The notes below the pieces were generated by a model, which ran no database searches, was not told where the DNA came from, and saw only the letters and a program-made list of their open reading frames with translations. From an uncultured Christensenellaceae bacterium (GTDB lineage: Bacteria > Bacillota > Clostridia > Christensenellales > Pumilibacteraceae): a stretch of DNA of 64,000 nucleotides. This document shows, in pieces, positions 11,267 to 57,255 of this stretch. The stretch spans positions 2,046 to 66,045 of the forward strand of contig CAJUPB010000012.1 in assembly GCA_910588155.1 (NCBI GenBank), written 5' to 3'. The position numbers and the translations under genes were made by a program. Numbering within the stretch: the stretch's first letter is position 1; each line of letters opens with the position of its first letter.

Positions 11267-11274
11267 TTCGGAAG

Positions 11275-19005: not shown

Positions 19006-19106
19006 AAATCAGCGTTTATAATTACGGTGTAACCGAAAATCAACGGTTATGCCGTTTTTATGTACATAATTGCGGGATAACATCGATAAAGGAAGGAGGA
19101 TTTTGT

Positions 19107-24313: not shown

Positions 24314-24324
24314 TGCAGGCAAAC

Positions 24325-24357
24325 AAAAACGGCAGGTCAAGCGACCCGCCGTTTTTT
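24325..24357. terminator. Bidirectional terminator between the convergent GH3 and ilvC genes
   Basis: The stem is ACGGCAGGTC/GACCCGCCGT (1 mismatch), flanked by an A-run and a T-run. Confidence 0.75.
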
Positions 24358-30294: not shown

Positions 30295-31746
30295 ATGTCG
30301 GAGTTTTTGGACAACGAAGAGTGGTCGACGATAAGCGACGTGGAAAGAGAATATTTTTTTAACGACAAATTGGTTGAAGGAAATTTTATTGTCTGCGACA
30401 ATGAAGATTTTACGCTTTTGATAGATAAGAATCAAGACGTTATAGTGAATTTATTTATAGGCAGCCAACAAGAAGTAACCGTCCCGGACGACGCTGCCGT
30501 CATTGTAGACGATTTATTCGAAGACTGCGAGAATTTGGAAACGCTGAATTTGCCGAAGTCGATTAAAGCCGTAGGCAAAAATGCGTTTGCCGCGCCGAAT
30601 CTTAAAAGAATTAACTATGCCGGCACTTTGGAGCAATGGTGCGATATCGAGTTTTATTCCGCGCCGTTTGCAAGCGGATGCGCGCTTTATATAGACGGCA
30701 AGCGTCTGGAAAAAATCGAAATAGAAAACAAGAAAGAGATTTCGGCATACGCTTTTGCGGGGCTGAAAGAGCTTTCCTCTATAAATATAGGAAAAAGAGT
30801 AAAAAAAATTTGCGAAAGCGCATTCGAGCATTGTGCGGGCGTCGGAAAAATAGTTCTTTCCGAGGATGCTGAAATTCTGGAAGACGGCGCGTTCGAGGGC
30901 AGCAATCCGAAAGACGGTTTCGAAATCGATGCGAATAATCCGAAATATAAGACAATCGGAAACTGTATCGTCGATAAAACCGAAAACAGTATAATTGCGG
31001 GCTGCGACAAGAGCGTCGTCGAAAACGGCATAGAGAAAATAGGCGATTACGCTTTCACCGATTGCACTTTCGAAGAAATCGAACTGCCGCCGTCGGTCAA
31101 GGAAATAGGCGACGGAGCTTTTTCGGGAACGCATTTGAAAAAGATAGTTTTGTCCGAAGGCGTGAAAAAGCTTGGCAACAATGTTTTCGAGTACTGCGCC
31201 GAACTAACAAGCGCCATTATTCCCGCTACGGTAAAGAGCATAGGAAAAGCGGTTTTCTGCGGCTGTCAATCACTGACGTCGATAAGAGCGGAGCGAGGCA
31301 ATAAAGTTTATTCGGCGGAAGGAAATTGCGTTTTGGAGACGGCGAGCGGCAAATGCATAGCCGGCTGTAAGGATAGCGAAATCCCGGACTATGCCACGGA
31401 AATAGGCGCGATGGCGTTTTACGACTGTAAAGAATTGCGCTCCCTGCGTTTACCGAGGGGTTTGAGAAAAATAGGCGTCTGTGCGTTTACTCATATAGGC
31501 GCGGAAGAATTGGTTTTCCCCGCAACTCTTTCCGAAATAGAGCTGTCGGCGTTTGAGGGGTGCAAGAGTCTCAAAAGAATAACGTTCGAGGGAGAGACGG
31601 CGCTCGATTCCGGAGACGTGTTTTACGGCTGTGCCGTGCTCGAATCGGTAACCGCACCGAAACAGTACAAAAAACATTATAAGAAAATATTCGGCGGTTT
31701 TAAAAACGGCGAGGGCAAAAAGCTTAAATTGGAATTCGTGAAGTAA
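30295..31746 (+). CDS. BspA-type leucine-rich repeat protein, no signal peptide seen
   Basis: LRR_5-like repeats run throughout (LETLNLPKSIKAVGKNAF, IEKIGDYAFTDCTFEEIELP, VKEIGDGAFSGTHLKKIVL). The N-terminus is hydrophilic. Confidence 0.75.
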   Translation: MSEFLDNEEWSTISDVEREYFFNDKLVEGNFIVCDNEDFTLLIDKNQDVIVNLFIGSQQEVTVPDDAAVIVDDLFEDCENLETLNLPKSIKAVGKNAFAAPNLKRINYAGTLEQWCDIEFYSAPFASGCALYIDGKRLEKIEIENKKEISAYAFAGLKELSSINIGKRVKKICESAFEHCAGVGKIVLSEDAEILEDGAFEGSNPKDGFEIDANNPKYKTIGNCIVDKTENSIIAGCDKSVVENGIEKIGDYAFTDCTFEEIELPPSVKEIGDGAFSGTHLKKIVLSEGVKKLGNNVFEYCAELTSAIIPATVKSIGKAVFCGCQSLTSIRAERGNKVYSAEGNCVLETASGKCIAGCKDSEIPDYATEIGAMAFYDCKELRSLRLPRGLRKIGVCAFTHIGAEELVFPATLSEIELSAFEGCKSLKRITFEGETALDSGDVFYGCAVLESVTAPKQYKKHYKKIFGGFKNGEGKKLKLEFVK

Positions 31747-32184: not shown

Positions 32185-33711
32185 ATGGCTTTTGAACCGG
32201 TATACGACACGGCGGTTTTCGATACTTACCGCCGACTTGGGACGGGTCAGGCTGTGGTGGAAGCGCGGCTTCTTCCCAGACCCGAAACGCGCATAGCAAA
32301 GGTGCTGTCCACGTCGTCTCAAATAAGCATCGGAGCGGCGGAGGCGTTCACCGGCGAAGCGCGCTATTCCGGAAGAGTGAACTTCAAAGTTCTGTTCGAA
32401 ACGACGGAGGGCGGCGTGGAAATGTTGGACTACAACGCCGATTTTTCCGACAAAATCGAGGCGAATGGCGTGGGTGCGGCGACAAAGACCTGCTTTTCCG
32501 CATCGATACTCGATATGGACATTATTGCGGCGGAGGAAGACGTCGTCAAACTTGCCGCCGTCGTGGAAGTAACGCTTTACGGTTGCGACCGCGAGAACAT
32601 CAAATATCTTGCACGCGGCGGAGAGAGCGTCTATACCCGCGAGGACAGAGTGAAGTGCTGTAATCTCGTTGCGGAAGCAAACGATACTTTTATCGTTTCC
32701 GATACGGTAACGGACTTAAACGGCTGCGAAATCATTGCTACGGAGGCGGAGGCATTCGTGAGCAGGATAGACAGCTTCGACGAATCCGTCGCCATTACGG
32801 GCGAAACCGTCGCCACGCTTGTGCTGCGCTCCCAAAGCGGCGCGCTTTCGAGCAAGCGAATTTATATTCCGATTGATTGGCAATGCCGCGCGGACGGCGC
32901 GCGAGCGGGTGACATAACCACGGGCGGTATTTGCGTGAAAAACGTTTCCGTGTCTATGTCCGGCGGCGGAGAAGAAACCGTCGCGGAATTGGAACTTACG
33001 CTTAAAGCCGATGTGCTTGTGTTCAGAACGGACGAAATAACGCCGTCGATTGACGCGTTCTGTCTGGAAAACGAACTGCTTTCCACCGTGCAAAGCGTGG
33101 AAATAAGTATGCCGAAAGGCGACGTTACGATAACCGATACCGTCGAGGGAAATGTGGCAATCGACGAAAAATTGCCGCTTGCCGACGCAATTTCGGGCGT
33201 GTTCGGCTCTCGCGTCAGCATTTCCAACGTGCTTTCTGGAGACGGGAGAGTTACCGTCGAGGGAATGCTCGGCTGTAATATCGTGTACGTGAATACCGAA
33301 CGCGGTTCGAACACCGTCTTTGCGCAGGTGCCGTTCTCGCTGGCATTGAATGCGGACGGCGTGGAAGAAGGCGATTTCGTTACGGCAGTCGCGGGCGTAA
33401 AAGACGTAAACGTCAAAATCAGACGCGGCAACGAATTGAGTTTGCGAGGCGATATTTGCATAAGGCTTACTCCCGTAAAATCCTGCGTTTCGGCGATTAT
33501 ATCCGAAATCAAGGTCGGAGAGGCCAAACAGCCGAGAGAGGCGGCGATTTCCGTGCATATCGCAAGAAAGGGCGAGACCGTTTGGGATGCGGCAAAAGCG
33601 CTCGGACTCACGCCCGAAGAGGTGACGAGACAAAATCCCGACGTCGCAATGCCCTGCGCGGGCGGCGAGAGACTGGTCGCGTACCGTCAAATGGAAAAAA
33701 AGGCGAAATAA
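32185..33711 (+). CDS. SPOCS (DUF3794) repeat protein with C-terminal LysM domain (sporulation-associated)
   Basis: Repeated beta-rich modules typical of DUF3794 (ARYSGRVNFKVLFETTEGG..DYNADFSDKIE). The C-terminal LysM-like block is HIARKGETVWDAAKALGLTPEEVTRQNP. Confidence 0.65.
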   Translation: MAFEPVYDTAVFDTYRRLGTGQAVVEARLLPRPETRIAKVLSTSSQISIGAAEAFTGEARYSGRVNFKVLFETTEGGVEMLDYNADFSDKIEANGVGAATKTCFSASILDMDIIAAEEDVVKLAAVVEVTLYGCDRENIKYLARGGESVYTREDRVKCCNLVAEANDTFIVSDTVTDLNGCEIIATEAEAFVSRIDSFDESVAITGETVATLVLRSQSGALSSKRIYIPIDWQCRADGARAGDITTGGICVKNVSVSMSGGGEETVAELELTLKADVLVFRTDEITPSIDAFCLENELLSTVQSVEISMPKGDVTITDTVEGNVAIDEKLPLADAISGVFGSRVSISNVLSGDGRVTVEGMLGCNIVYVNTERGSNTVFAQVPFSLALNADGVEEGDFVTAVAGVKDVNVKIRRGNELSLRGDICIRLTPVKSCVSAIISEIKVGEAKQPREAAISVHIARKGETVWDAAKALGLTPEEVTRQNPDVAMPCAGGERLVAYRQMEKKAK

Positions 33712-40381: not shown

Positions 40382-40594
40382 CTACTTGTCGTTAGTGTCC
40401 CGTCCTATCAATTCGTCAAGAGAAATACCGTAGTAATCTGCCATTGAAACGCAAAAAGAAATACTTGGTTCTACTGTATTGCTTTCCCATCTGCTGATAT
40501 TTTGCTGTGACGTTTTAATGAGTTTTGCCAAATCGGTTTGACTCAATTTTGCGTTTTGCCTGTGATATTTAAATTCGTTTCCGTAATTTGCCAT
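40382..40594 (-). CDS. XRE-family HTH repressor (70 aa)
   Basis: The HTH is LSQTDLAKLIKTSQQNISRWES. AAGGAG lies 6 nt before the ATG at 40594 (MANYGNEF). Confidence 0.85.
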   Translation of the reverse strand: MANYGNEFKYHRQNAKLSQTDLAKLIKTSQQNISRWESNTVEPSISFCVSMADYYGISLDELIGRDTNDK

Positions 40595-40617
40595 AGTCAA
40601 CTCCTTAAATTATTGTA

Positions 40618-40684
40618 ACACATAATTGTGTTTTTGCTTGACTTACACATAATTGTGTGATATTATTGTTACACAAATTTGTGT
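40618..40684. promoter_or_regulatory. Divergent promoter region with three 14-bp palindromic operators (ACACA-N4-TGTGT)
   Basis: O1 at 40618-40631 and O2 at 40645-40658 both read ACACATAATTGTGT. O3 at 40671-40684 reads ACACAAATTTGTGT, a perfect palindrome. The rightward promoter is TTGACT (40638-43), a 17-nt spacer, then TATTAT (40661-66), with O2 inside the spacer. The leftward promoter is an extended -10 TGTTACAAT adjacent to and partly overlapping O1. Confidence 0.6.
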
Positions 40685-40698
40685 AAGGAGAGGATAAT

Positions 40699-40971
40699 AT
40701 GAATAATCAAACAGATAAGTGTTATAAATGCAGATTTTTTTGCAGGTATTACACGAGAGGCGTCAAGCAGTTTAACCGAACGAAATTCGGTTGGTGTTAT
40801 AAACGGTCGGAAGTAAAGGACGCGGGCGACTGTTGCGAAATATATATTTACGAGCCATTAAAACGGGGGAGCAAAAAGTTGGTGAAAGTGTGTTTGAACG
40901 ATTTGCTGACCGAAATAAGCGAGGTCAGAAAAGTCATAGAGGCGGAAAGAGATGAGAGAAAAGAAAATTGA
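40699..40971 (+). CDS. Small Cys-rich protein, paralogue 1 (90 aa)
   Basis: AAGGAGAGG SD. The Cys pattern is CxxC-x3-C-x17-C-x11-CC, followed by a charged helix. It aligns with the next ORF. Confidence 0.6.
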   Translation: MNNQTDKCYKCRFFCRYYTRGVKQFNRTKFGWCYKRSEVKDAGDCCEIYIYEPLKRGSKKLVKVCLNDLLTEISEVRKVIEAERDERKEN

Positions 40972-41197
40972 AAGTTGCAAAACTTGCAATGCCTGCAAAC
41001 GCGTATATACGAAAAGTTGGTATAGGTTTTGGGCGGAAAGACATTACTATTGCAAAAAGCGCGGTAAAATAGTCGACGGCGGCGGCAACTGCGGCAATTG
41101 GAAAAAAAGAAGAAACACATATAACTTGTCCGAAGCTCGTTTCGTCAGGGCGGAAGAGGACGTCAAAGCCATTGCCGAATATCTGAAAGATATATAA
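40952..41197 (+). CDS. Small Cys-rich protein, paralogue 2 (81 aa)
   Basis: It overlaps paralogue 1 by 20 nt. The Cys pattern is CxxC-x2-C-x17-C-x12-C, with shared positions (Y-T, F, C-K-[KR], D-G-x-C), followed by a charged helix. Confidence 0.55.
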   Translation: MREKKIESCKTCNACKRVYTKSWYRFWAERHYYCKKRGKIVDGGGNCGNWKKRRNTYNLSEARFVRAEEDVKAIAEYLKDI

Positions 41198-41230
41198 AAA
41201 CGGCTCGCCGTTTAAAGCGAGCCGCAAAAT
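41196..41230. terminator. Bidirectional terminator between the Cys-rich genes and the giant gene
   Basis: The stem is CGGCTCGC/GCGAGCCG with an 8-nt loop and A-rich flanks on both sides. Confidence 0.7.
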
Positions 41231-41240
41231 CCGTTTGCGA

Positions 41241-44200
41241 TTATTCTTGCACGGGACTTTTGATTGTGCCGTAGGAATGTGAGTCGAGATATTCGCGCAA
41301 GGTTTCTATGGGGCGTTCGTCGTATATCGGCGTGTCGCCGTTAAAGCCCGTCGCAACTCTGAACGTTTCGATTTCTTCGCCTATATCGGCAAGCACGGCT
41401 TCGAACTTCATAGACACCACGCTTGCCATAGACGTGGAGAAGCCGAGTTCGTTTATGAAAGTCTTTTCGCCCGTGCCGATATTCGTTTTGCGCGTGCCGA
41501 TGAACAGCTCGGCTTCCGAAAGGCTGGTGTTTCCGGCAAGGCTGCCCAAATCGATTTTTGTGTAATGGCGATTGTCTTTGAAGTAGTAGTGTTTATAGAA
41601 GTCTTTGAACTCTCCGGGAGTCGTGTTTCCGCCCTTTGAAATTTGGTCGGTTATCGTACTCTTCAAAATGCCCGACATCGGCGCGACATAGAAGACGTAT
41701 TCCATTATGTTGTTAATGCCGTCTGTTCCCGACATTTCGCTCATCAAATCGCCTACGGCAACTTTGACGAAGTTGTATTTTCCGTTCTTGTCGAGCTTGT
41801 TGAAATACATATAGCCGTCGAGGTAGTAAATTTGAGACGCCGATTTTTCCAAGACTTCCACGATAATCGATTTTTTCGGGGTGGAAAGCGAAACGATGAC
41901 AAGCGGCTTATTGACTATACTGCCGTCGGGTTGCGGTGTGGGAATCAGCTTTACTCTTGCGTCGATGGGTACGTTAATGTCGATGTTGACGATTCCGATG
42001 TGCACATTCAGATTGCCCGAAATGTGGAAGTCGGAGAGGTTTGCCGTATTTAAAAGCGCGGTCGTGAGATTGGAAACATTCGACAAATCGTTCAGGCAGT
42101 TGCCTTCGAGATATTGTTTGTAATATGTTTCGTACTTCATTCCGTAAGTGCTTTCGAACCAGGCGGAGAAGTAGTCGTCCAAAGAAGTCGTTTGTCCGTT
42201 GTCCGACACGGTATTTTTCATTGTGTGGAAATCGGCATAGGTCCAATATTCTCCGTTGTATTCCACGTATGTGAGGTCTTTGATTTTGTCGACAAAACCG
42301 TCCGAAATTTTCAGATATTCGTCCGTTCTCATTCTGACGTATTCGCCGTCGTTGCTCTGCGTGTATTTATAGCGCGCACCCCAGAAATCCCACGAGCGTT
42401 TGAAACGCTGTGATTTGATTATATCGCTCTCGCCGAACGATACGTCGTGACGCACGTATTCTTCTTTGTAGTTCGGCAAACTTACGCCGTTCAGTTTGCC
42501 TGCGAGAATGTTGTCGATAAGCTCTTGGCGTTTATACGTGCCGCCCGCGCTTGTGGCGTAGTTGTAATCGTGATATACGGGACGCTCTATTTTAATTTCG
42601 TTTGCGTCGGGGCAATCGAGGGACAGGCGGAACGACGTGACGGAGTTTGACGTGTGAAGATTGCTCATACTCCAATCGGTCAGCACGGGATTGCCGTCGT
42701 TCGTTCTCGTAAGAGTAAAGTCGGTTTCGCCGACGCGAACCGTCAAGGTCGAAGTTTCGCCGTTTTCGGCGGTAACGCTTTTCAAACTTACTCTCGGCAA
42801 ATTGCGAATGAGATTGACTATTTGTCCCACGCCGGGGGAGGATATGTCTCCCGTTCCGAACAGTTTGGATATTCTGCCGATGACGTCGCTTGCCGTGCTT
42901 ACGAATTCGGTATAGTCGTAATCGTAATCATACATAAATTCCTGCGCTTCGTGACAGACTTGCGTCGCAATGTCCAAAAGTCCGTTTATAAGCTCGCTCA
43001 TTTCGGCAAAGCCTTCTATGTCGAAGTCTTTCAAAAATTCGCCGGATACTATTTCTCTGTCCTTCGGAATCACATAGTCGAGAATCGTGCCGTCTTTGAT
43101 TCCGAGGGCGTCCTTGACGTTTCCGAGAAGGTTAAGCACTTCCGCAACGGTAAGTTTAAACTTGACGCCGTTGTAAGTTAGATATATTTCCTGCAACGGG
43201 TCGCCGTCGGTAATCATAATTTCAAACGTGTGTCTGGGGGCGACACCGTCGAAATTTGCGTCCACGCCTGTTGCCGCCGTTTCGTATACGTTAAATCCGA
43301 GCCGCAGGTTGGGTATGCCGCTTTTGGGGATAATTTCCGCATAGCCGTCGACTTTATGCGTTTTGTCTTTATACCACACGCGAATGTCGTGGAATGTCAC
43401 GCGATATGCCTGCTGTTTGAACGTTCCCAAAAGCGCGTCGAAATAGCTTATCAATTCGCTTGCCGGCGTGTAGTCGAGATTGAGAGAAGACAGAACGTAT
43501 TCCTCGGCTTCGGTTTGGTCGAATACGCGTGACAAATCGAGAGAGGCATTTATTGCTACCGTGCCGATTGTTTCGTCGTAAAGCTCGGTATGCAGCGTGA
43601 TTCCGCCGAGCGTTCCGTTTTTCAAGTTCACGCACAAATCGAGAGCGACGTCGCCGAACTTCAAGCCGATTTCGAGAGATTCCGAATTTGTGATTTTGAC
43701 AAAGTCAATCATATCGAGAACGGAATTTGCGTTCAAATCGGGCGTTGCTTCGTCGATTTTGTTTTGCAGGTCGGCGATGAGGCGGGGGAGGAACTTCGGC
43801 AGCATAGGCTGTACCGATTGCATAAACGCGTCGAAATCGTCTTTATTGCCGCAGACGCGCAATTCGTCGTAAACAAAGTGGTAATCTTTGCCGCTGCGCG
43901 AGAATACGACGGGGAGATTTTCTCCGCCGACTTGCGGCAGAGAGAGATTGATTTGGAAGTCGGCGCCGCTCTGTTTCAAAACGACGGCAATCTGACCCGT
44001 TACCGCAATGCTCTCGCCGTCGAGAGCTATGACAGCGTTGAAATCCGCGACGACTCCGCGCTTGTTTACAAGTTCCTTAATCGGTTCGACAAACCGCAAG
44101 AGGTCGTTTGCGTCGATATATTCGATGTCGGCGGCGGCGATATTCTTTTCGGTTTCGCTTGCCGAAAGGACTGCGTCAAGTTTGATTTTTGCGCCGTTTG

Positions 44201-46280
44201 CCTCGATTTCGTCTATGTTCAGAGAGGACAGGTATTTGCCGTCGTGACAAAGCGTTATACCGTAGTTTTTACCGTCGATTTCTACTGCCGCGCGCAGGTT
44301 GCCCTCGACGGCTTGGAATTCGGTTATGTGCGCAAACAGAGCTTTCAAATCGAGATTTGCAAGCACGTGCGCAATATTCGGAATTTCGATGTTTTTATTT
44401 AACCCGACGTCGGGAAGAACAATACCCGCCGAGGACAGCAGTTCGGCGATTTCGGATTTCAAGTCGTCGAAATCGGCGACGTCGGCTTTGATTCCGACGT
44501 TTCCGCATTTCAAGTATACAGTCTCGCCGTCAAAGCAGACGTCGAAAGCAATGCCGAGCTTTTCCAAAGATATTTTGCCGCACAGCGTCAAATCGCGGTT
44601 CAGCAAAATATTCGCCGTTATTTTGTCGGTGAAGTTTGCGCTTTCGACGTTTGCCGTCAAAGCTATGTCGAAGCTCTTTGCGTTTGCCGTGTTCAATGCG
44701 GGCTCGACGAAATCCAGCACGGGTTCGAGGGATACGAATTCGGACGTATCGGGGAAGTCGAAACCGTCTCTCGGAGTTATGTCGATTATCACGGGAATGC
44801 CGTTTATTTTCACCGTGGCATTTATGGAGTTCAGCGAAACATTTTCGCCGTCGTTTATGACGAGGTCAACGTCCAATTCGATTTTGCTTGCAAGCTTGAC
44901 AAGCTCGCAGTCCGATTTCAAAAGGTCGGACAACTTGAATTTCAAGGTTATGGTGACCAATCCGTTCTCTTTCACGAGGTCGGAATCGGCAAACAGCGAA
45001 CCGATTATGTCGTCGGTCAGCATAGCTTCGAAATCGGCATTCAAAAGCGCGTTCAAATCTATGCCGCCGATATTGATTTTGTCGAAATCGAAACCGAAGT
45101 CGAGTTCGAGAAGTCGGGAGAGGGCGGAAATCGGAAGATAGCCTTTGACTATTCCCGCGCCCACATACGCCCGTTCGCCGTCATAACCGAAGAACAGTGC
45201 GTCGTCGACAAGCGCACTTATATTCATCGAAGAAATATCGACGCTTGCTTTGATGTTTCGTCTGCTTCCGAAAACAAGCGCATCGGCTTCGATTGTCAGT
45301 TTTTCGCCGTTCAAATAGGGCGCAAACGCTTCGGCGAGATAGGTGGAAGCATTCTTTTCCGCGGGGATATCGGGGATATCCGTGTTGTCGCCGTCTTCGG
45401 GAAGAAACGGCTCGAAGATTTCGCTTTCGGGCAAGGGCATATCCTCGTTTATATACGAGAACGTATCGAGCATAGTGGATACGCAGGACATACTGCCGAG
45501 GACGGGAATGGCAATGTCGTACGTGTCCACGCACAGAACGGTTTTTGCGTACCAATTCGAGTCAATCGTCATTGTCAGCGTCATAGAATGTATGACGGGG
45601 TCCTGCGCCGCGCTTGCCAAAGTGCGGATTTCGTTTTTGAAATATTTGCCGCCGATTTCGGGAATGAGTTCGAACTCATAGACATATTCGTCGTTGCCGA
45701 AGGATATGAGTTTTGCCGAGGATACGGATTCTTCGGTAACGGAATATTTGGTTATTTCGCGGGGTACGGCTCCGTACTTCGAAAAGAACGTGTCGGTACT
45801 CATCGGATAAATCGAGCTGCTCCACGTGACGTTTTCTCCGCGCACTTTTTCGGAAGGGCGGAAAAGCACGGTATCGTTAGGCGTAATATATTTTTGTTCC
45901 GCCACCGACACAAGCGACGACGTGGACACAGTTTCCGCAAACACCGTTCCTTGTTTGACTTTGCGCGAGTTGCGGACGTTTTGGGTATACTTTGTGAAAC
46001 CGAGGTCGGCTTTGCACGTACCGACGGAATCTGCCTGAAAATAGCTCGAATTGAAAATTACGAAATTCGCAAAACGGAAGTTCTCCATAGGCGAATAGTC
46101 GAGCGGCGTGCCGCTTTCGGGGGGCTGTTCCATTTCGCAAATGCTGTTTACGATTTCCGCGGGGGTGAAAACGGAGGACGCGCCGCCGCCCGTAATAGAA
46201 GAGAGCACGTAAAAAGCCACTGCCAACACGGGCAGCAACATAAAAAACAATTTAAATCTGCTGACGTATTTTTCTTTCAC
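41241..46280 (-). CDS. Giant hypothetical protein, 1,679 aa, single N-terminal TM anchor, no recognised domain
   Basis: GTG start with GAGG 6 nt upstream. The TM helix is FKLFFMLLPVLAVAFYVLSSI. The remainder is acidic and N/D/S/T-rich with a beta-like alternating pattern. The gene is monocistronic, lying between a terminator and a divergent promoter region. Confidence 0.8.
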   Translation of the reverse strand: MKEKYVSRFKLFFMLLPVLAVAFYVLSSITGGGASSVFTPAEIVNSICEMEQPPESGTPLDYSPMENFRFANFVIFNSSYFQADSVGTCKADLGFTKYTQNVRNSRKVKQGTVFAETVSTSSLVSVAEQKYITPNDTVLFRPSEKVRGENVTWSSSIYPMSTDTFFSKYGAVPREITKYSVTEESVSSAKLISFGNDEYVYEFELIPEIGGKYFKNEIRTLASAAQDPVIHSMTLTMTIDSNWYAKTVLCVDTYDIAIPVLGSMSCVSTMLDTFSYINEDMPLPESEIFEPFLPEDGDNTDIPDIPAEKNASTYLAEAFAPYLNGEKLTIEADALVFGSRRNIKASVDISSMNISALVDDALFFGYDGERAYVGAGIVKGYLPISALSRLLELDFGFDFDKINIGGIDLNALLNADFEAMLTDDIIGSLFADSDLVKENGLVTITLKFKLSDLLKSDCELVKLASKIELDVDLVINDGENVSLNSINATVKINGIPVIIDITPRDGFDFPDTSEFVSLEPVLDFVEPALNTANAKSFDIALTANVESANFTDKITANILLNRDLTLCGKISLEKLGIAFDVCFDGETVYLKCGNVGIKADVADFDDLKSEIAELLSSAGIVLPDVGLNKNIEIPNIAHVLANLDLKALFAHITEFQAVEGNLRAAVEIDGKNYGITLCHDGKYLSSLNIDEIEANGAKIKLDAVLSASETEKNIAAADIEYIDANDLLRFVEPIKELVNKRGVVADFNAVIALDGESIAVTGQIAVVLKQSGADFQINLSLPQVGGENLPVVFSRSGKDYHFVYDELRVCGNKDDFDAFMQSVQPMLPKFLPRLIADLQNKIDEATPDLNANSVLDMIDFVKITNSESLEIGLKFGDVALDLCVNLKNGTLGGITLHTELYDETIGTVAINASLDLSRVFDQTEAEEYVLSSLNLDYTPASELISYFDALLGTFKQQAYRVTFHDIRVWYKDKTHKVDGYAEIIPKSGIPNLRLGFNVYETAATGVDANFDGVAPRHTFEIMITDGDPLQEIYLTYNGVKFKLTVAEVLNLLGNVKDALGIKDGTILDYVIPKDREIVSGEFLKDFDIEGFAEMSELINGLLDIATQVCHEAQEFMYDYDYDYTEFVSTASDVIGRISKLFGTGDISSPGVGQIVNLIRNLPRVSLKSVTAENGETSTLTVRVGETDFTLTRTNDGNPVLTDWSMSNLHTSNSVTSFRLSLDCPDANEIKIERPVYHDYNYATSAGGTYKRQELIDNILAGKLNGVSLPNYKEEYVRHDVSFGESDIIKSQRFKRSWDFWGARYKYTQSNDGEYVRMRTDEYLKISDGFVDKIKDLTYVEYNGEYWTYADFHTMKNTVSDNGQTTSLDDYFSAWFESTYGMKYETYYKQYLEGNCLNDLSNVSNLTTALLNTANLSDFHISGNLNVHIGIVNIDINVPIDARVKLIPTPQPDGSIVNKPLVIVSLSTPKKSIIVEVLEKSASQIYYLDGYMYFNKLDKNGKYNFVKVAVGDLMSEMSGTDGINNIMEYVFYVAPMSGILKSTITDQISKGGNTTPGEFKDFYKHYYFKDNRHYTKIDLGSLAGNTSLSEAELFIGTRKTNIGTGEKTFINELGFSTSMASVVSMKFEAVLADIGEEIETFRVATGFNGDTPIYDERPIETLREYLDSHSYGTIKSPVQE

Positions 46281-46538
46281 GGCAAGCCTCGAAAACCTCT
46301 TCCGAAAACGGATAACACCGATTAAAGACTGTTATCTTATTTAATATATATATAATATAACACAATAATGTCGAAAAACGCAAGAGTTCTCGCCTTATTT
46401 TCGAAAAATTTCTCCGATTTTTTTGCTTATAATCCCGCGAAAGAAGTAAAAATGTCCTTTGCGAGAGCAAGCGGTTTCGCATAATTGCCGAAAAAATGAG
46501 ATATACTGCTTATAAACGTTTAAAACGAGGATACTGAT

Positions 46539-47870
46539 TTGGCGGAAACTTTCGAATTACCCGACGCCGAGCGGTTTGTTTTGCCGCTTGACTTTGAAAA
46601 CGACAAAACAAAACTCGTCCGCGCGTTAAACGGTTATGCGCCGCGTTTCGGCGTGAAAATCGACGGAGTGACAAGCGAAAGGAATCTGCCGTTCGACCCC
46701 GAACCGCGAGTCATCGAAACAGAAGAGTTCGAGTTTTTGAAGCGAGGACTCATTCAGCGTGCGGACGCATTGAACGCATTTTTAAACGACGTATACGGCG
46801 ATTGCAAAATTCTCAAAGACGGCGTCATCCCCGCCGATTTCGTGCTGTCTTCGCAAGGCTTTCTTCCGCGTTGCATAGGAATCAAACCGCGCCGAGGTAT
46901 TTACGCGCACATTGCGGGAATAGACCTTGTCAAAAGCAAGAAAGGCGAGTGGTACGTTTTGGAGGACAACTTGCGAGTACCGTCGGGCGTGTCCTATCCG
47001 CTTGCCGCGCGTCTGGCGCTCAAAGACTGCGGTATGTGCGAATTCGACGCGGTAGACTCTTTGAATTACGGACGGCTTTTGAAGGACGCCTTCGATTTTG
47101 TTTCCTGCGGCGGCATCGACTGCGTGCTGACTCCCGGGAGAGGCAATTGTGCATTTTTCGAACACGGCTTTCTCGCGGAGATGACAAACAGTGCGCTTGC
47201 CTGCGGAAGCGACTTGTTTGCGGACGGCGACGTGCTTTACTTCAAAGGCGCGGACGGCGTGCAACGCGTGGGCGCGCTGTATACCCGCGTGGACGGAGTA
47301 TATGCCGACCCGCTTGCTTTCCGCTCCGTGTCCGCGGTCGGGACGCCGAATCTTTTCTCGGCATACGCCGCCGGCAACGTTGCCGTGCTGAATGCTTTCG
47401 GTTGCGGCGCGGCAGACGATAAGGGCGTGTATTGCTATGTGCCGCAAATGATTAAATACTATCTCGGACAAGACGCCGTTTTGTCGCAGCCGCAGACGTT
47501 TTTGCCGACACGGGGTAGCGAAATGCGCTATATACAAGACAATTTCGACAGTCTGGTCATAAAGGACGTCGCGGAATCGGGCGGCTTCGGAATACGTTTC
47601 GGCGCGGCGCTGGACGAGGAAGGAAAAGCCGCGCTCAAAGCCGAAATAACGGCAAATCCGAGGCGGTTTATCGCGCAGGAAGTCGTGGACATAGAAGAGC
47701 TGCCCGCGTGCGGCGGTTCGGCAAAAGCCGATTTGCGGGCGTTTGTCGTTACGTCCGACAGAACGAGAGTGTGGGAAAGCGGTCTGACTCGGTTTGCTGC
47801 AAAAGATTCGCTTATGGTAAATTCTTCGCAGGGTGGAGGTTTTAAGGATACGTGGGTATCGTTTCGTTGA
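46539..47870 (+). CDS. Circularly permuted type-2 ATP-grasp protein (DUF404/DUF407 family)
   Basis: Family-typical blocks are LPFDPEPRVIETEEFEFLKRGLIQRADALNAFLNDVYGD, ILKDGVIPADFV, and WYVLEDNLRVPSGVSY. TTG start. Confidence 0.75.
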   Translation: MAETFELPDAERFVLPLDFENDKTKLVRALNGYAPRFGVKIDGVTSERNLPFDPEPRVIETEEFEFLKRGLIQRADALNAFLNDVYGDCKILKDGVIPADFVLSSQGFLPRCIGIKPRRGIYAHIAGIDLVKSKKGEWYVLEDNLRVPSGVSYPLAARLALKDCGMCEFDAVDSLNYGRLLKDAFDFVSCGGIDCVLTPGRGNCAFFEHGFLAEMTNSALACGSDLFADGDVLYFKGADGVQRVGALYTRVDGVYADPLAFRSVSAVGTPNLFSAYAAGNVAVLNAFGCGAADDKGVYCYVPQMIKYYLGQDAVLSQPQTFLPTRGSEMRYIQDNFDSLVIKDVAESGGFGIRFGAALDEEGKAALKAEITANPRRFIAQEVVDIEELPACGGSAKADLRAFVVTSDRTRVWESGLTRFAAKDSLMVNSSQGGGFKDTWVSFR

Positions 47871-48478
47871 GTGATTTGGACAAGCTCTTTTGGGCGGGCA
47901 GGTATTGCGAACGCGCAAGAGGAATATATGAGCGCTATGTCGCCTTGCCGTCCGACGGCGGCGTGCGGCTCGACTTTCTGGCACGTCTCGGCATAGATTG
48001 CAACGATTCGTCGCCGCATATTGCGCTGTTTGGCGGCGACGGTGCAATCGTGAACGCTTTGCGTATGTGGCGGGAGAATGTTTTGTGCCTGCGGTATGTG
48101 CTGTCTTGCCGAGCGGTGATTCAGGCGGAAAAAGCCGTAACGGAGTGCGAAGAGGGGAATTTCGACAATCTCGTTTTGCGTTCTTACGCATTTTTCGGAA
48201 TGACGGAAGACTTGACGTTCGACAATACCGCCCGATGCTGCGTGACGGCGGGGCGAATGTGCGAAAAACTCGATTTGTTGTCGCGGTTTTGCGAAGACAC
48301 GTTTGCCGCGCAAGACGCTTTGAACCGTTTGAGTGCGGCTTGCGCCGACAGCCCCGCCGTGCAAAATATGATTTCTCAAAGCGCGCTGCAACTGATTGAC
48401 GGCGATATACGCTCGAATAATGTAGTCACGGTCAAGAGCAGAACGCCGTATTTGGAGAGCAATAATGAGTTTTCTTGA
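47852..48478 (+). CDS. Alpha-E domain protein (DUF403), short form
   Basis: LFWAGRYCERARG matches the alpha-E N-terminal signature (YWMGRY.ERAE). It overlaps the ATP-grasp gene by 19 nt. At 208 aa it is shorter than I expect for this family (about 300 aa, from memory). Confidence 0.65.
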   Translation: MGIVSLSDLDKLFWAGRYCERARGIYERYVALPSDGGVRLDFLARLGIDCNDSSPHIALFGGDGAIVNALRMWRENVLCLRYVLSCRAVIQAEKAVTECEEGNFDNLVLRSYAFFGMTEDLTFDNTARCCVTAGRMCEKLDLLSRFCEDTFAAQDALNRLSAACADSPAVQNMISQSALQLIDGDIRSNNVVTVKSRTPYLESNNEFS

Positions 48479-49244
48479 TTTCGATTACGAACTGAAACTG
48501 AATTTCTCTTCGCCCGTCACCGACCACCGATTTATATTGCGCTGTCTGCCTTTGAGGGATTTGTCGCAATTGCCCGACGCCGTGGAAGCGGAAGTGTTTC
48601 CGCACAGCTCGCTTTGGAGAAGCTCCGCGCCGAACGAGGGCGGCACTCTTATGGGCAGCGTGGATTTCGAACACACGGAGTTTACCGCGAGAACTCGGGG
48701 CAGGGTTTTCGAACGCGAGGGCTACGATACGGGCGCGCCGCATTTCGCATATTTGCATTTTACGTCCGTGACCGAACCCAATGAATTTTTGAGAGATGTT
48801 GCGAAAAAGTTCGACAGGCATTCGAAGAACTACAATCTTGCGCTTAAAGCAATGGAAGAGGTCAACTCGATGTTGACGTATACGGAAAATGCCACCGACT
48901 CGGATACGACGGCAGATGAGGCTTTGCGGATGAAAAAGGGCGTGTGTCAGGATTATGCGCACATATACTGTTCGCTTATGCGGCTTTTGGGAGTGCCCAC
49001 GCGGTATGTGGCGGGACTCTTGAAAGGCGTCGGAGAAACTCACGCTTGGAACGAGTGCTATTTAGACGGGCATTGGCGGGCATTCGACTGCACGAACGAC
49101 AAGCCCGCGACGAACGGTTACGTCAAACTCGCCGTCGGCGTCGATGCGCGTCAGTGTGCGCTTAACAGGGGAGTGTTTACGCCGTTGCTTGGAAAGGTGG
49201 CGGAGCAGTCGCAGCGGGTGCGCGGACGGGTGGAAACTTCTTGA
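48465..49244 (+). CDS. Transglutaminase-like cysteine protease-fold protein (Bact_transglu_N plus transglut core)
   Basis: The Cys-His-Asp triad context is KKGVCQDYAH, GETHAWNECY, and RAFDCTN. It overlaps the alpha-E gene by 14 nt. Confidence 0.8.
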   Translation: MSFLDFDYELKLNFSSPVTDHRFILRCLPLRDLSQLPDAVEAEVFPHSSLWRSSAPNEGGTLMGSVDFEHTEFTARTRGRVFEREGYDTGAPHFAYLHFTSVTEPNEFLRDVAKKFDRHSKNYNLALKAMEEVNSMLTYTENATDSDTTADEALRMKKGVCQDYAHIYCSLMRLLGVPTRYVAGLLKGVGETHAWNECYLDGHWRAFDCTNDKPATNGYVKLAVGVDARQCALNRGVFTPLLGKVAEQSQRVRGRVETS

Positions 49245-54549: not shown

Positions 54550-57255
54550 ATGATGAAAGTCGATAAAAAAAGAGCGACGTATATGCCGCTTATAACGCTG
54601 TTAATCGCGGTACTCGTATTGCCCGCTTTATCGGGCTGTTTTTCGGGTTGCTTCGGTTTGTCGCTGACTTCCATATCGTTCAAACAAGAACAAATAAATT
54701 TGAATATCGGCGACGTGTATACCGTCACCGCATCTGCGCTGGATTTCGAGCCGGCTCTTGCTTCGAACAAGGATTTTACGTTGGAAAGCCAAGATTTTGA
54801 CGTCGTGGAAGTCGTCGGAAGACAGATAACCGCAATCGGAGCGGGCAAAGCAACCGTAACGGCGGTTGCCGACGCAAACCCGAGCATTCGCGCGCAAATA
54901 ATCGTAAACGTCGGATATCCTACACCCACGGTTCTGACACTTAATACAATAGGGGACACTGCGCAGTATGTCGGCGAAGTTACCTCCGTGAAATTCGAAG
55001 TTGCGGCAGACGTCGAAATAGACCCCGAAAGCCGTTTTATATGGACGATTGACGGCGAGCGCGACCCCGAAAACGAGTCGGCGGTTTACGAGTTTACTCC
55101 CGCGAATCGGGCGGGCGAGCATTTGATAGAAGCCGAGCTCGGGGACTGCAAAGCGCAAAGCTGCATTAAAGTGTTCACGAAGAGGATAGAAAATGCCGAA
55201 GCGAGCGCAACGGGCGCATTCGAACAGGACAACGATTATACGGCGGTAAATATTTCCGTGACGTATTCGGCTGTCGACGGCGACCCCGAACCTTTTATGG
55301 ATTATTATGTAAACGGCAAACTTTGTCACAGCGGTTCCGACAATTTCGATTTCACGCCGGAAACCGCGGGAATATATACCGTTACTGTAAAACTCAACGA
55401 CGAAACCGTGCTCATAAACGGCGAAAGCGAGCTTGTGATTACCGCAAAGGGCAGCGTTACGCCGACGGGAGTCAAGGTTTCGTATAACAACGTATATCCG
55501 AATATTATCGTGACTTGGAATTGTCCGCATAACGACAATATGAATTACGGACTCAAAATAGAAAAAATCGTCGGGGGCAACGTTTCGCAGGTTTCGGAAA
55601 ATATCACTTCGACGAACGTTTCGGCGAAAAAGTATTTCGACGGTACCAGCGTCAATCTGGGCGAGCTTATCGACATAACTTCTTCGGCATACAGGATAAG
55701 CGTTCGTTCTCTCGGCGACAACGGCATATACTCTCAATCGTCGTACAGCGACGGCGTTATCGTGAATAAGATAGATTCGAGCGCGGTATCGGCATTGAAC
55801 AATAAAGTTCTCGGCTCTTCCATCGACCATTACATCGTGGGCGACGACGAATTCAACGAGCTTTACGCATATTATATGGCATTCAGAAAAACCGCATCAA
55901 AAGTTCAGTTTACGGTGTATATGGCATATACACCCGCACATAAGGCTTACAGCGGTGCAGGAGAGTCCTCTCTTTTGGGCAATGCATTCAATTACGGCGC
56001 GACCACCGGTTACTACGACATAGAACCGCCCAAGGTAAACGGAAGAACAGTTTATTCGGTTCGCGCGGGGGACGTTATGACGGTGACGGTCGGTTGCGAC
56101 AATACCGTGGTCCCGAGCATTGCGGGCGATTATTCGCAGACCGTAAGACAATACGACGCTTTGGAACCTCACACCGCGACGGCGCTCGGCAAGAGTCTGA
56201 CGAGAGACTCGACCCACGAGTTTGTCACGGATACTTATACCAAAGCGGAAGCGGTAACCACTTCGGAAGAACTGTTTCGTACGGTGGAATACGGCGTGCG
56301 TCCCGTTCCTACGAGAGGTTCGGCGGCGGAGAGATTGTATTCTTTTGCGAAAAGACTGCTTATCGAAATAAATTCCGACGATATGACCGACGCCGAAAAG
56401 GTGCACAGCATATACGATTGGATTATGTGGAACGTTCAGTACGACCATTCGGCAGTAAACGTAAGCAAAGAAACGGACAGCGCGAAATACAATGCCTATT
56501 GGTTGGAAGGCGTGTTGACGACGACAAACGCATATGCCGTTTGCGACGGTATGAGCAAAGCAATGTCGCTGTTATGCAATATGGAGGGAATACCCGCATA
56601 CCGTGTCACGGGCACGGCGGGGCCGTCCGTTGCGGGATTGACGAGAGCGGAAGCATTGCTGGTCAAACAGGAACAATGGGGCGGTCACGCCTGGGTTAAG
56701 GTCAAAGTGGACGGAGATTGGTACGTCTGCGACCCGACCTGGGGAGATTCTACGGCGGAAATAGGGTCGGGATTTTCCAAAGCGGTGTACGAAATGGCTT
56801 GGCACGACCACTTGCTGGTTTCCGACTCCGACATAGCATACACGCACGAATACGACCATACTACGAATAATCCCGTAACCGCTGCGGAAAGTTACAATAT
56901 TTACGATAAAATGGAATTGGTTTATGCGGATTCGAGCGGAACGCAAAAGAGCGTCGACACCTATATCGACGCGGGCGGCAGCGCGATGGACAGAGAACTC
57001 CGCGAAATCGCCGACTATATTTCATACAGTGCAGACATTGCTAAAAAGAGCATTACCATTATGGGAAGTACGAAATCGAGATTGTATTTCGGCGTCGAAT
57101 TGGTGGCTTCGGACAGATATATGAGCGCTTTCCGTACGACGATGAAATCGCTGACCAATCCGTTGAAAATGCGCCTTTACGAAAACGGATACCGTTCCGT
57201 AGACATATTGATGTTCGATTCTGCGGACAGCATAATGGTCACGGTCAGATTATAA
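54550..57255 (+). CDS. Large lipoprotein with Big_2-like Ig domains and a C-terminal transglutaminase-like core
   Basis: The signal peptide has lipobox LSGC. A Big_2-like module is present (NIGDVYTVTASAL...ITAIGAGKATVTAVA). The TGase triad context is AYAVCDGMSKAM, WGGHAWVKV, and YVCDPTWGD. Confidence 0.8.
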   Translation: MMKVDKKRATYMPLITLLIAVLVLPALSGCFSGCFGLSLTSISFKQEQINLNIGDVYTVTASALDFEPALASNKDFTLESQDFDVVEVVGRQITAIGAGKATVTAVADANPSIRAQIIVNVGYPTPTVLTLNTIGDTAQYVGEVTSVKFEVAADVEIDPESRFIWTIDGERDPENESAVYEFTPANRAGEHLIEAELGDCKAQSCIKVFTKRIENAEASATGAFEQDNDYTAVNISVTYSAVDGDPEPFMDYYVNGKLCHSGSDNFDFTPETAGIYTVTVKLNDETVLINGESELVITAKGSVTPTGVKVSYNNVYPNIIVTWNCPHNDNMNYGLKIEKIVGGNVSQVSENITSTNVSAKKYFDGTSVNLGELIDITSSAYRISVRSLGDNGIYSQSSYSDGVIVNKIDSSAVSALNNKVLGSSIDHYIVGDDEFNELYAYYMAFRKTASKVQFTVYMAYTPAHKAYSGAGESSLLGNAFNYGATTGYYDIEPPKVNGRTVYSVRAGDVMTVTVGCDNTVVPSIAGDYSQTVRQYDALEPHTATALGKSLTRDSTHEFVTDTYTKAEAVTTSEELFRTVEYGVRPVPTRGSAAERLYSFAKRLLIEINSDDMTDAEKVHSIYDWIMWNVQYDHSAVNVSKETDSAKYNAYWLEGVLTTTNAYAVCDGMSKAMSLLCNMEGIPAYRVTGTAGPSVAGLTRAEALLVKQEQWGGHAWVKVKVDGDWYVCDPTWGDSTAEIGSGFSKAVYEMAWHDHLLVSDSDIAYTHEYDHTTNNPVTAAESYNIYDKMELVYADSSGTQKSVDTYIDAGGSAMDRELREIADYISYSADIAKKSITIMGSTKSRLYFGVELVASDRYMSAFRTTMKSLTNPLKMRLYENGYRSVDILMFDSADSIMVTVRL

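Follow-up and report, generated by a model that had tools for sequence, protein, structure and literature searches.

A membrane-anchored giant protein of gut Clostridia is a member of a large unannotated family and is predicted to carry an array of LolA-like modules

The largest ORF in a 64,000-nt stretch of DNA from an uncultured gut bacterium (hereafter "the window") encodes a protein of 1,679 aa, the runner-up ORF encoding 1,083 aa. An earlier note on this DNA had described it as a membrane-anchored orphan with no recognisable domain and had likened its organisation to that of the AsmA/TamB/YhdP proteins. The gene and its flanking signals are as follows.

41241-46280, minus strand: complete coding sequence of 1,679 aa, with a GTG start and a TAA stop (41241-41243)
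46287-46290, minus strand: ribosome-binding site GAGG, 6 nt 5' of the GTG, as read from the sequence
46281-46538, no strand assigned: AT-rich divergent intergenic region common to the giant gene and an ATP-grasp gene
41200-41225, minus strand: intrinsic terminator hairpin of 10 bp with 7 G-C pairs, then TTTTATATAT, 15 nt past the stop codon

The interval 41241-46280 is a real, native gene. Its ORF spans 5,040 nt with both start and stop conserved, the starts of orthologues coincide with that of the query (MKEKYVSRF...), a product of identical length is called on dozens of independent contigs, and GC3 and rare-codon usage are the same as in the neighbouring genes. When compared with a 77%-identical orthologue (locus L001), the whole gene had a dN/dS of 0.129, indicative of purifying selection. 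By part, dN/dS was 0.054 for the N-domain, 0.068 for the C-domain and higher, at 0.18, for the modules, and the base (N-domain) and tip (C-domain) are the most constrained parts of the protein. The chance that there is no real gene here, only a chance ORF, an assembly chimera or a decaying pseudogene, is vanishingly small: nothing but the missing annotation speaks for it, and it is refuted by the conserved 5,040-nt ORF, the recurrence at equal length on dozens of contigs, the dN/dS of 0.13, the orthologues in 32 species and the confident structure predictions. The promoter presumably lies within 46281-46538; a scan upstream of the gene gave no match to the sigma-70 consensus on the minus strand. 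Downstream, a terminator is indeed present in the form of the 10-bp hairpin followed by a T-run on the minus strand, but its earlier description as bidirectional does not hold, since the T-run lies on the giant gene's strand only and the plus strand has only a weak, separate hairpin.

Nor is the protein an orphan. An exhaustive profile search was run with the N-domain, which defines the family and is better conserved than any other part (26 columns invariant in 30 species). It returned 1,380 representative proteins at E ≤ 1e-3, of which 496 passed E ≤ 1e-30, these representatives being clusters at 50% identity. Family members are mostly 1,200-3,200 aa long, and within the top 144 representatives the N-domain was found in all 144, modules in 127 and the C-domain in 61. 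Relatives occur in 32 GTDB species, apparently with one locus per genome, and the organisms carrying the family are gut-dwelling. Named members are all "hypothetical proteins" of Clostridia MAGs, together with a 2,713-aa orthologue (WP_251182130) from the cultured Anaerocaecibacter muris CLA-AA-M11; two further clusters whose names were looked up had only that label or none. The query is a short member of this large unannotated family of uncultured gut Clostridia (CAG-552/Pumilibacteraceae and relatives). Module copy number ranges from 3 to 10 across the family, with the query counted at 3, and in one member (P0075) adjacent module copies are 88-94% identical. Flg_new (Listeria-Bacteroides) repeats are seen in distant relatives only. 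The NCBI name "YdgA family protein", attached to one relative (MCI9031870.1), was discarded: the family alignment reached a probability of just 0.2% when set against E. coli YdgA in hhalign, and scanning P0031 with Pfam at E ≤ 10 gave no DUF945 match. When Pfam domains co-occurring with the family were sought using a broadened N-domain alignment, the homologue search gave two proteins only.

At the level of sequence libraries, the claim that the protein has no recognisable domain stands. The query had no match at E ≤ 1 in Pfam, in NCBIfam or among PDB sequences; family profiles searched against the same three collections were equally fruitless; Pfam returned nothing useful for ten diverse family representatives; and there was no sequence match to LolA, LolB, LolA_like, MucB_RseB or LppX_LprAFG models or solved members. 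Pfam likewise finds no SLH, CW_binding, Big, FN3 or LRR domain in the query, and a motif scan bore out the reported lack of an LPXTG sorting signal or simple catalytic motif and extended it to the lipobox. The lone LPxxx match in the query is internal, at aa 382. The same claim fails at the level of fold, where the modules are recognisable as LolA/LolB-like. The predicted layout, all on the minus strand, is as follows.

46194-46256, minus strand: N-terminal transmembrane (TM) helix, aa 9-29, at the Kyte-Doolittle maximum (AF2 helix 8-28)
45381-46133, minus strand: N-domain, aa ~50-300, one helix and ~12 antiparallel strands, pLDDT ~90
44766-45350, minus strand: module D1, aa ~311-505, helix, 6 strands, helices and 5 strands by DSSP, holding YDGERAYVGAGIVKGY
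44145-44765, minus strand: module D2, aa ~506-712, by DSSP, holding FDGETVYLKCGNVGIKADVADFDDL
43506-44144, minus strand: module D3, aa ~713-925, by DSSP, holding SGKDYHFVYDELRVCGNKDDFDAF
42606-43505, minus strand: module D4, aa ~926-1225, by DSSP, divergent, its last 5 strands preceded by a helical lid region (~aa 1045-1160) that is enlarged
42093-42605, minus strand: aromatic-rich insert, aa ~1226-1396, a small alpha/beta domain with short hairpins, pLDDT 75-91 at aa ~1251-1380
41244-42092, minus strand: C-domain, aa ~1397-1679, a helix with an NTAN motif, 6 strands, helices and 7 strands, pLDDT 80-90

Although comparison of the query with itself by BLAST found no repeats, HMM and hhalign comparisons did reveal them, with module-module hhalign probabilities of 87-99.9%. 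D1 scored 98.4% against the module profile and 92% against D2; D2 (module HMM i-E 1.8e-44 over aa 438-617) and D3 (1.2e-14) each reached 99.9% by hhalign; and the module HMM matched D4 at 6.7e-6 over aa 868-1071. The three similar module ends noticed previously, at aa 366-387, 583-607 and 796-819, fall at equivalent positions in these homologous ~200-aa modules. No homology of the N-domain or C-domain to the modules was detectable by hhalign, but weak reciprocal HMM matches tie the C-domain's first helix to the D2 helix ALNTANAKSFDI, and the C-domain, the conserved distal "tip", is probably a very divergent module. The aromatic-rich stretch was also confirmed (F+Y+W make up 20% of aa 1301-1400). 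This insert is confined to the closest relatives (the P0002-P0006 group), being absent from P0008-type sequences, and it had no significant match among PDB sequences, where the best hits (E ~0.2) were to GH62 arabinofuranosidases and spanned 29 residues.

The module fold class is a LolA-like half-barrel according to two AlphaFold2 (AF2) models, which cover non-identical halves of the protein and were built from only 24 sequences. The models had mean pLDDT values of 74.9 and 73.8, with pTM values of 0.42-0.56 for segments of 900-1,100 residues. By DSSP, each of D1-D4 runs in the order helix, 6 strands, helices, 5 strands, and the C-domain is ordered similarly. When both models were compared with the PDB using Foldseek, they matched LolA, LolB, LprF, LolA-superfamily and DUF1329 structures with probabilities of 0.96-1.00, target-normalised TM-scores of 0.32-0.53 and E values of 1e-4 to 1e-2. 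Even TM-scores of 0.44-0.53 are moderate, and the rmsd was 6-10 Å; for MucB/RseB the probability was 0.97-1.00 and the TM-score low, at 0.27-0.32. Since the two models have no complete domain in common, at least two different domains must match LolA-type folds. In LolA, lid helices lie mid-sequence, with alpha2/alpha3 near residues 95-100 being followed by strands beta8-11 (PMC9457489), and the modelled modules likewise carry lid helices mid-sequence. In this segment-wise prediction, which the earlier note had proposed as a check, the confident Foldseek matches were to the lipid-carrier folds of LolA, LolB, LprF and MucB and not to TamB or AsmA.

A single N-terminal TM helix had been claimed, and the query does contain one hydrophobic 19-mer (Kyte-Doolittle 2.39 at residue 11), the second-best segment scoring 1.6. 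A TM-like segment precedes the N-domain in all 136 testable family representatives. In relatives, basic residues stand before the helix and no AXA-type cleavage site follows it, and the aa 9-29 helix is probably an uncleaved signal-anchor with its N-terminus inside; in this orthologue, it may be cleaved as a signal peptide (GGA/SS). The body is acidic and N/D/S/T-rich, as reported, with a net charge of -102 (D 7.9, E 6.6, N 6.0, S 7.8 and T 6.6%). Given the basic residues before the TM helix, the lack of a second TM helix and the surface-protein Flg_new repeats in distant relatives, we infer that the body faces outwards in a type-II (N-in, C-out) topology.

The surroundings of the gene are core-genome, with housekeeping neighbours. 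Synteny with the adjacent ATP-grasp triad is seen in the closest relatives only and breaks down at distant loci, where unrelated housekeeping genes take its place. A functional link to the ATP-grasp/Alpha-E/transglutaminase triad was accordingly rejected, as the genes are adjacent only in loci L001, L003 and L004 and the triad is absent in L002; no gene neighbour is conserved across the family. The window also encodes YpeB, an SleB-like neighbour and SipL, as well as surface-type proteins (BspA-type LRR and Big_3), and there was no outer-membrane gene among the ~20 genes scanned in it. A phage origin was dismissed on the basis of these housekeeping neighbours and of PHROGs, where nothing scored better than E = 0.027, for a functionally uncharacterised 66-aa family; IMG/VR held no relatives of the giant protein, and matches among the viral structures of BFVD were of low probability and TM-score only.

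What, then, might the protein do? The general architecture proposed before, in which an N-terminal anchor carries a very long ectodomain that is repetitive, beta-rich and acidic, is supported, and we tentatively propose, as a possibility that falls somewhat short of even, a membrane-anchored extracytoplasmic rod of LolA-fold modules with an envelope function and perhaps a hydrophobic ligand. Such a rod would consist of about six concatenated half-barrel domains (the N-domain, four ~200-aa modules and the C-domain), its base held at the cytoplasmic membrane by the TM helix. The central modules would act as a length-setting spacer whose copy number shifts through tandem duplication, as their mutual homology, copy number of 3-10, 88-94% identity in P0075 and higher dN/dS suggest, and would bring the conserved tip some 20-30 nm away from the membrane, to a position in the wall or beyond it. 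Cavities of the LolA type, in the base, in the tip and possibly also in the modules, may bind something hydrophobic or amphipathic that belongs to the cell's own envelope, or else a partner protein. The protein would then help to organise or maintain the envelope rather than adhere to a particular host. An outward-facing body, a reach that spans the wall, a bound ligand and a housekeeping role in the envelope would all be part of such a picture. Against it, a LolA-like fold need not mean a lipid-related role in a monoderm; GerS, for example, activates an amidase (bioRxiv 10.1101/2025.01.13.632879).

The rod could instead be a surface adhesin or fibril, in which a stalk of modules presents the C-domain, together with this lineage's aromatic-rich insert, to host mucus, dietary glycans or other cells. 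We consider this unlikely, though far from negligible. In its favour are the facts that members differ in their number of repeats, with some duplications of very recent date, that the ectodomain is strongly acidic, that distant relatives have Flg_new repeats, that the aromatic-rich hairpin insert is lineage-specific, that the organisms live in the gut and that BspA-type LRR and Big_3 proteins are encoded in the same window. Host-binding tips are usually the variable part of adhesins, whereas here the base and tip vary least (dN/dS 0.05-0.07) and 1,380 clusters retain the N-domain; moreover, the query carries neither a known adhesin or wall-binding domain nor an LPXTG motif, and its genomic context is housekeeping and apparently single-copy. 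If the protein instead worked inside the sporulating cell, it might be a sporulation-specific envelope protein of the forespore or mother-cell membrane, acting in the intermembrane space on cortex or spore-shape assembly, much like a greatly extended SsdC. There is a precedent in SsdC of Bacillus subtilis, which is TM-anchored and MucB/RseB-like (PMC7769602), MucB/RseB is among the confident fold matches (probability 0.97-1.00), and YpeB, an SleB-like neighbour and SipL are encoded in the window. We nevertheless regard this reading as very improbable: linkage to the ypeB region is limited to the closest relatives, distant loci having unrelated housekeeping neighbours, MucB gives low TM-scores (0.27-0.32), no sporulation-sigma promoter stood out when the upstream region was read by eye, an observation given no weight here, and a rod of 25-50 nm with a variable module number is not obviously suited to a fixed intermembrane gap.

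Also improbable is a revised form of the earlier note's comparison, a bridge-like lipid conduit, in which the half-barrels would align into a continuous hydrophobic path leading lipids, lipoproteins or lipid-linked precursors away from the membrane. Its route would be across the wall or between mother-cell and forespore membranes, and it would be a functional analogue of AsmA/TamB/YhdP or of the Lpt bridge. The N-terminal anchor and long beta-rich body would fit, as would best fold matches that carry lipids or lipoproteins, and short inter-module linkers together with pTM values of 0.42-0.56 suggest a fairly rigid assembly, not beads on a string. Set against this, AsmA-clan Pfam models match none of 16 members, TamB or bridge-like lipid-transfer structures are absent from the top 50 Foldseek matches and Lpt reaches a probability of 0.04-0.13 only, each module has lid helices, as in closed LolA, relatives vary between 3 and 10 modules, and the organism, which encodes YpeB and SipL, is a spore-forming Firmicute of the Clostridium type in which none of the genes scanned was an outer-membrane gene. 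Taken to its furthest, this reading would make the family a single-polypeptide relay or conduit of LolA-fold cavities, a monoderm counterpart of envelope lipid and lipoprotein trafficking machines, but we see this as a long shot. Its cargo would be lipids, lipoproteins or lipid-linked wall precursors, which would leave the cytoplasmic membrane and either traverse the wall or cross the intermembrane space of the forespore. Module number would in that case be tuned to the distance bridged.

Whichever reading is preferred, at least 1,380 clusters of proteins of 1,200-3,200 aa, from common and poorly studied gut Clostridia, have been without a name, a Pfam or NCBIfam model or a proposed function. 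Their architecture is now defined: a TM anchor is joined to a conserved N-domain, then to LolA-fold modules in an array of variable length, and lastly to a tip that is again conserved. Should the modules bind hydrophobic cargo, the LolA fold would prove to have been built into long covalent arrays in bacteria without an outer membrane, a point of interest for how lipids and lipoproteins get through the thick walls of monoderms; should the array be a stalk, it would constitute a new repeat class for surface fibrils. Either way a family definition is merited, and Anaerocaecibacter muris offers a cultured organism for study.

Returning to known systems, the giant protein is like AsmA, TamB and YhdP in its N-terminal TM anchor, its very long beta-rich extracytoplasmic body and a length able to span an envelope compartment. 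Their groove is continuous and helix-poor, whereas the giant's predicted body is modular with lid helices, and an outer membrane is not expected in its organism. The specific comparison made in the earlier note is not supported: no Pfam model of the AsmA clan (AsmA, TamB/DUF490, YhdP, DUF748, DUF3971) matches any of the 16 family members at E ≤ 1, NCBIfam gives nothing, neither model has a TamB or bridge-like lipid-transfer structure among its 50 best Foldseek matches in the PDB, and the modelled module order is that of LolA, with lid helices mid-module, and probably not that of a helix-poor continuous beta-taco. What may survive of it is the idea of envelope lipid-handling-type modules in a spore-forming Firmicute, because the best matches, LolA, LolB, LprF and MucB/RseB, are envelope carriers of lipids or lipoproteins.

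Firmicute repeat-stalk proteins, the LPXTG or SLH adhesins with Big, FN3 or G5-E repeats, resemble the giant in having acidic, presumably extracellular tandem modules of ~200 aa, a copy number that varies between species and recent duplications, and distant members of the giant's family have Flg_new repeats. The giant differs from them in being anchored by an N-terminal TM helix, not a C-terminal sorting signal, in its repeat fold, in the strong conservation of both ends and in having no known adhesin domains. MucB/RseB- or LolA-fold domains are found in monoderm spore-formers in SsdC (YdcC) of Bacillus subtilis (PMC7769602) and GerS of Clostridioides difficile (bioRxiv 10.1101/2025.01.13.632879). 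These domains are TM- or lipid-anchored outside the membrane, much as is proposed for the giant; both proteins, compared with it at the level of fold only, are single-domain, a few hundred residues long and have roles in sporulation or germination, and they have nothing that corresponds to its array of repeats or its conserved tip. Foldseek's best confident matches are to the LolA/LolB superfamily (LolA, LolB, LprF/LppX, the MucB/RseB N-domain, DUF1329 and EPDR1), with which the giant's modules share a predicted half or unclosed antiparallel beta-barrel of ~11 strands, an N-terminal helix, mid-sequence lid helices and a size of ~200 aa, without similarity at the level of sequence. Firmicutes are not known to have a Lol pathway. 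Known members of this superfamily are single domains, soluble or lipid-anchored, whereas the units of the giant (about six, with up to 10 or more repeat modules in relatives) are covalently concatenated on a TM anchor.

The giant ORF, put forward in the earlier note as the largest gene in the window, is the longest ORF there and a real gene, with the following features.

41241-46280, minus strand: giant ORF, GTG start, 1,679 codons
6 nt 5' of the giant ORF's GTG, minus strand: ribosome-binding site GAGG
41200-41225, 3' of the stop codon: terminator hairpin, 10 bp, G+C-rich, T-tail on the giant gene's strand

Orthologues share the same start (MKEKYVSRF...), and gene calls on dozens of contigs from independent assemblies, up to 331 kb long, give an identical 1,679-aa product. 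This recurrence, together with a dN/dS of 0.129 against a 77%-identical orthologue, makes it exceedingly improbable that the ORF is an artefact rather than a genuine gene. Since its GC3 (0.62) and near-absence of TTA, CTA and TCA codons are as in neighbouring genes, the gene is native and not recently imported. The hairpin is a terminator for the giant gene, with the T-tail on that gene's own strand; it is not convincingly bidirectional, as had been proposed.

Several properties read earlier from the protein hold. Its sole sufficiently hydrophobic segment, at residues ~9-29 (Kyte-Doolittle 2.39), is the single N-terminal TM helix, and AF2 predicts a helix at residues 8-28. The protein is acidic (net charge -102) and D/E/N/S/T-rich, with neither an LPXTG signal nor a simple catalytic motif, and a lipobox was not found in the protein. 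The Tyr/Trp-rich stretch and the three peptide strings interpreted as ends of modules lie where they had been placed.

The protein is no orphan, as it had been called, but belongs to a family of giant envelope proteins that is large and has no name. A word-indexed search returned only 16-24 relatives, every one giant (1,666-3,458 aa) and, apart from a few distant ones with Flg_new or WapI-like domains, free of Pfam domains. When an N-terminal domain profile was run exhaustively with HMMER against 1.84 billion representatives, 1,380 proteins matched at E<=1e-3, 1,044 at E<=1e-10 and 496 at E<=1e-30, mostly 1,200-3,200 aa long. The best 150 of these 1,380 comprised six known relatives and 144 new representatives, whose architecture was surveyed. 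All 144 carry the N-domain. A TM-like segment precedes it in every one of the 136 whose upstream sequence was long enough; 127 contain one or more repeat modules and 61 a recognisable C-domain. A scan of GTDB species genomes turned up the giant gene at 32 loci, each in a different assembly and apparently the only one in its genome; the carriers are MAGs of uncultured 'Christensenella' or Clostridia, mainly from the mouse gut, and the cultured Anaerocaecibacter muris (Pumilibacteraceae, GTDB family CAG-552).

The source names, of Clostridia or Clostridiales MAGs, are all 'hypothetical protein', save one 'YdgA family protein' (MCI9031870.1, relative P0031, at locus L003). That protein has no DUF945 match in current Pfam and hhalign gives it a probability of 0.2% against E. 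coli YdgA; the name appears to be a mis-annotation. A whole-protein family profile also found distant relatives P0076, P0081, P0083 and P0082, some with C-terminal Flg_new (Listeria-Bacteroides) repeats and one with a WapI-like immunity-protein domain mid-protein; the canonical N-domain is missing from P0081 and P0083.

The fold was predicted in two overlapping AF2 models, residues 1-1100 and 781-1679, each from a shallow alignment of 24 sequences (mean pLDDT 74.9 and 73.8; pTM 0.42 and 0.56). In these, an N-domain of one helix and ~12 strands (pLDDT ~90) is followed by four repeats of a helix, 6 strands, 2-3 helices and 5 strands, the helical region being enlarged in the fourth. The aromatic-rich stretch sits in a small, confidently folded alpha/beta insert, present only in the closest relatives, and the C-domain comprises a helix, 6 strands, helices and 7 strands (pLDDT 80-90). 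Confident Foldseek matches in the PDB were LolA, LolB, LprF, other LolA-superfamily proteins, DUF1329 and MucB/RseB. For LolA, LolB and LprF, both models matched with probability ~1.0 and E of about 1e-4 to 1e-3 over 200-240 aligned columns, with moderate target-normalised TM scores (0.42-0.53). As the models have no complete domain in common, at least two different domains match this fold. LolA has its lid helices alpha2/alpha3 in the middle of the sequence, followed by strands beta8-11 (PMC9457489); the modules have the same secondary-structure order. Matches to viral structure libraries were meaningless, and a phage-tail identity, raised earlier, was looked for with no phage signal found.

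A module HMM, seeded from the obvious repeats of one relative and refined with 35 modules, detected ~190-200-aa modules in every family member. The query matches at residues 438-617 (i-E 1.8e-44), 676-856 (1.2e-14) and 868-1071 (6.7e-6), and weakly at 315-381 and at the C-domain start (1397-1440). Its three central segments are mutually homologous by hhalign (87-99.9%); the modules themselves are too diverged for BLAST detection. At the profile level, hhalign detected no relation of the N- and C-domains to the modules; the C-domain is probably a very divergent module, because a weak reciprocal match links its HMM to the D2 helix ALNTANAKSFDI. Counted strictly, modules number as few as 3, in the query and its nearest relatives (which are some of the shortest members identified), and as many as 10. 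In the 2,666-aa relative P0075, neighbouring modules 2-4 share 88-94% identity, a sign of very recent tandem duplication. The two ends are under the strongest constraint, with dN/dS of 0.054 (N-domain) and 0.068 (C-domain) against 0.18 for the modules. The family combines a conserved base and a conserved tip with a middle of variable length.

Synteny with the triad of a circularly permuted ATP-grasp, Alpha-E and transglutaminase (46539-49244), which adjoins the giant gene in the opposite direction, held in part: the triad is adjacent in orthologous loci L001, L003 and L004 only, and is missing from L002, where the giant gene has dnaX as its direct neighbour. In distant loci, the giant gene is flanked by unrelated housekeeping genes (asparaginase, NUDIX, Zn-peptidase, M29, fumarase, mnmA). 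A functional link to the triad was rejected on these grounds, and no conserved partner gene was found across the loci compared.

Other features of the window were as follows.

40382-40600, minus strand: XRE-type HTH gene, 72 aa, facing two Cys-rich ORFs
40699-40971: Cys-rich ORF, 90 aa
40952-41197: overlapping, paralogue-like Cys-rich ORF, 81 aa
36056-37417: YpeB
30295-31746: BspA-type LRR protein
19070-21052: Big_3 protein
54550-57255: 901-aa transglutaminase-like protein
32185-33711: SipL (SPOCS) sporulation protein
48-2861 and 21065-24313: two large GH3 glycosidases
21089-24340, minus strand: antisense ORF opposite 21065-24313 (plus strand)
8948-11302, minus strand: antisense ORF opposite secA

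The first three form a cassette (40382-41197) between a nitroreductase gene and the giant gene. Neither Cys-rich ORF has a Pfam match, and neither was matched in L001 or L002, where the nitroreductase gene lies ~50-90 bp from the giant gene's end, which makes the cassette a strain- or species-specific insertion. YpeB and the four entries listed after it are further genes of envelope, surface or sporulation type near the giant gene. Both GH3 proteins have permuted domains, Glyco_hydro_3_C and Fn3-like first and the N-terminal catalytic domain last. The many antisense ORFs mirroring real genes, up to 1,083 aa, are shadow ORFs and not genes: because TTA, CTA and TCA occur at a combined rate of only 0.9-6.8 per 1,000 codons, stops are nearly absent from one antisense frame.

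Taken together, the models predict about six half-barrel domains of the LolA/LolB fold class, joined in a chain with a membrane anchor. The body would lie outside the cell: the lone TM helix has basic residues ahead of it, no signal-peptidase site occurs in relatives, and Flg_new repeats turn up in distant ones. At ~4 nm for each LolA-sized domain, six would extend some 20-30 nm, close to the thickness of a Gram-positive wall. We tentatively favour, at somewhat under an even chance, a wall-spanning envelope scaffold or ligand-binding rod, in which the modules would be a length-setting spacer and the conserved ends would contact the cell's own envelope components. A hydrophobic or amphipathic ligand at these ends is plausible given the LolA-type fold, although C. 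difficile GerS shows that this fold is not tied to lipid transport when it occurs in a monoderm (bioRxiv 10.1101/2025.01.13.632879).

An adhesin binding host or glycan would fit the changing repeats, an acidic protein and life in the gut; the strong conservation of tip and base and the core-genome context speak against it, and we consider it unlikely. A true bridge-like lipid conduit seems decidedly improbable: no TamB, AsmA-like, VPS13/ATG2-type or convincing Lpt structure was among the top 50 Foldseek PDB matches. A sporulation-specific protein, for which SsdC is a precedent (PMC7769602), we rate lower still.

The earlier comparison with AsmA/TamB/YhdP was not borne out: the protein fails the AsmA-clan sequence test, the fold search lends no support, and on both counts it would not be a clan member. 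We know of no described family with LolA-fold units concatenated on a TM anchor, and literature searches for such arrays found nothing. The family merits attention for its size, for the unusual way its domains are arranged and because it might handle lipids in a monoderm, and it can be studied in a cultured species. Its closest likeness is to LolA and LolB, whose fold class the giant protein shares at the level of prediction only, and not by sequence.
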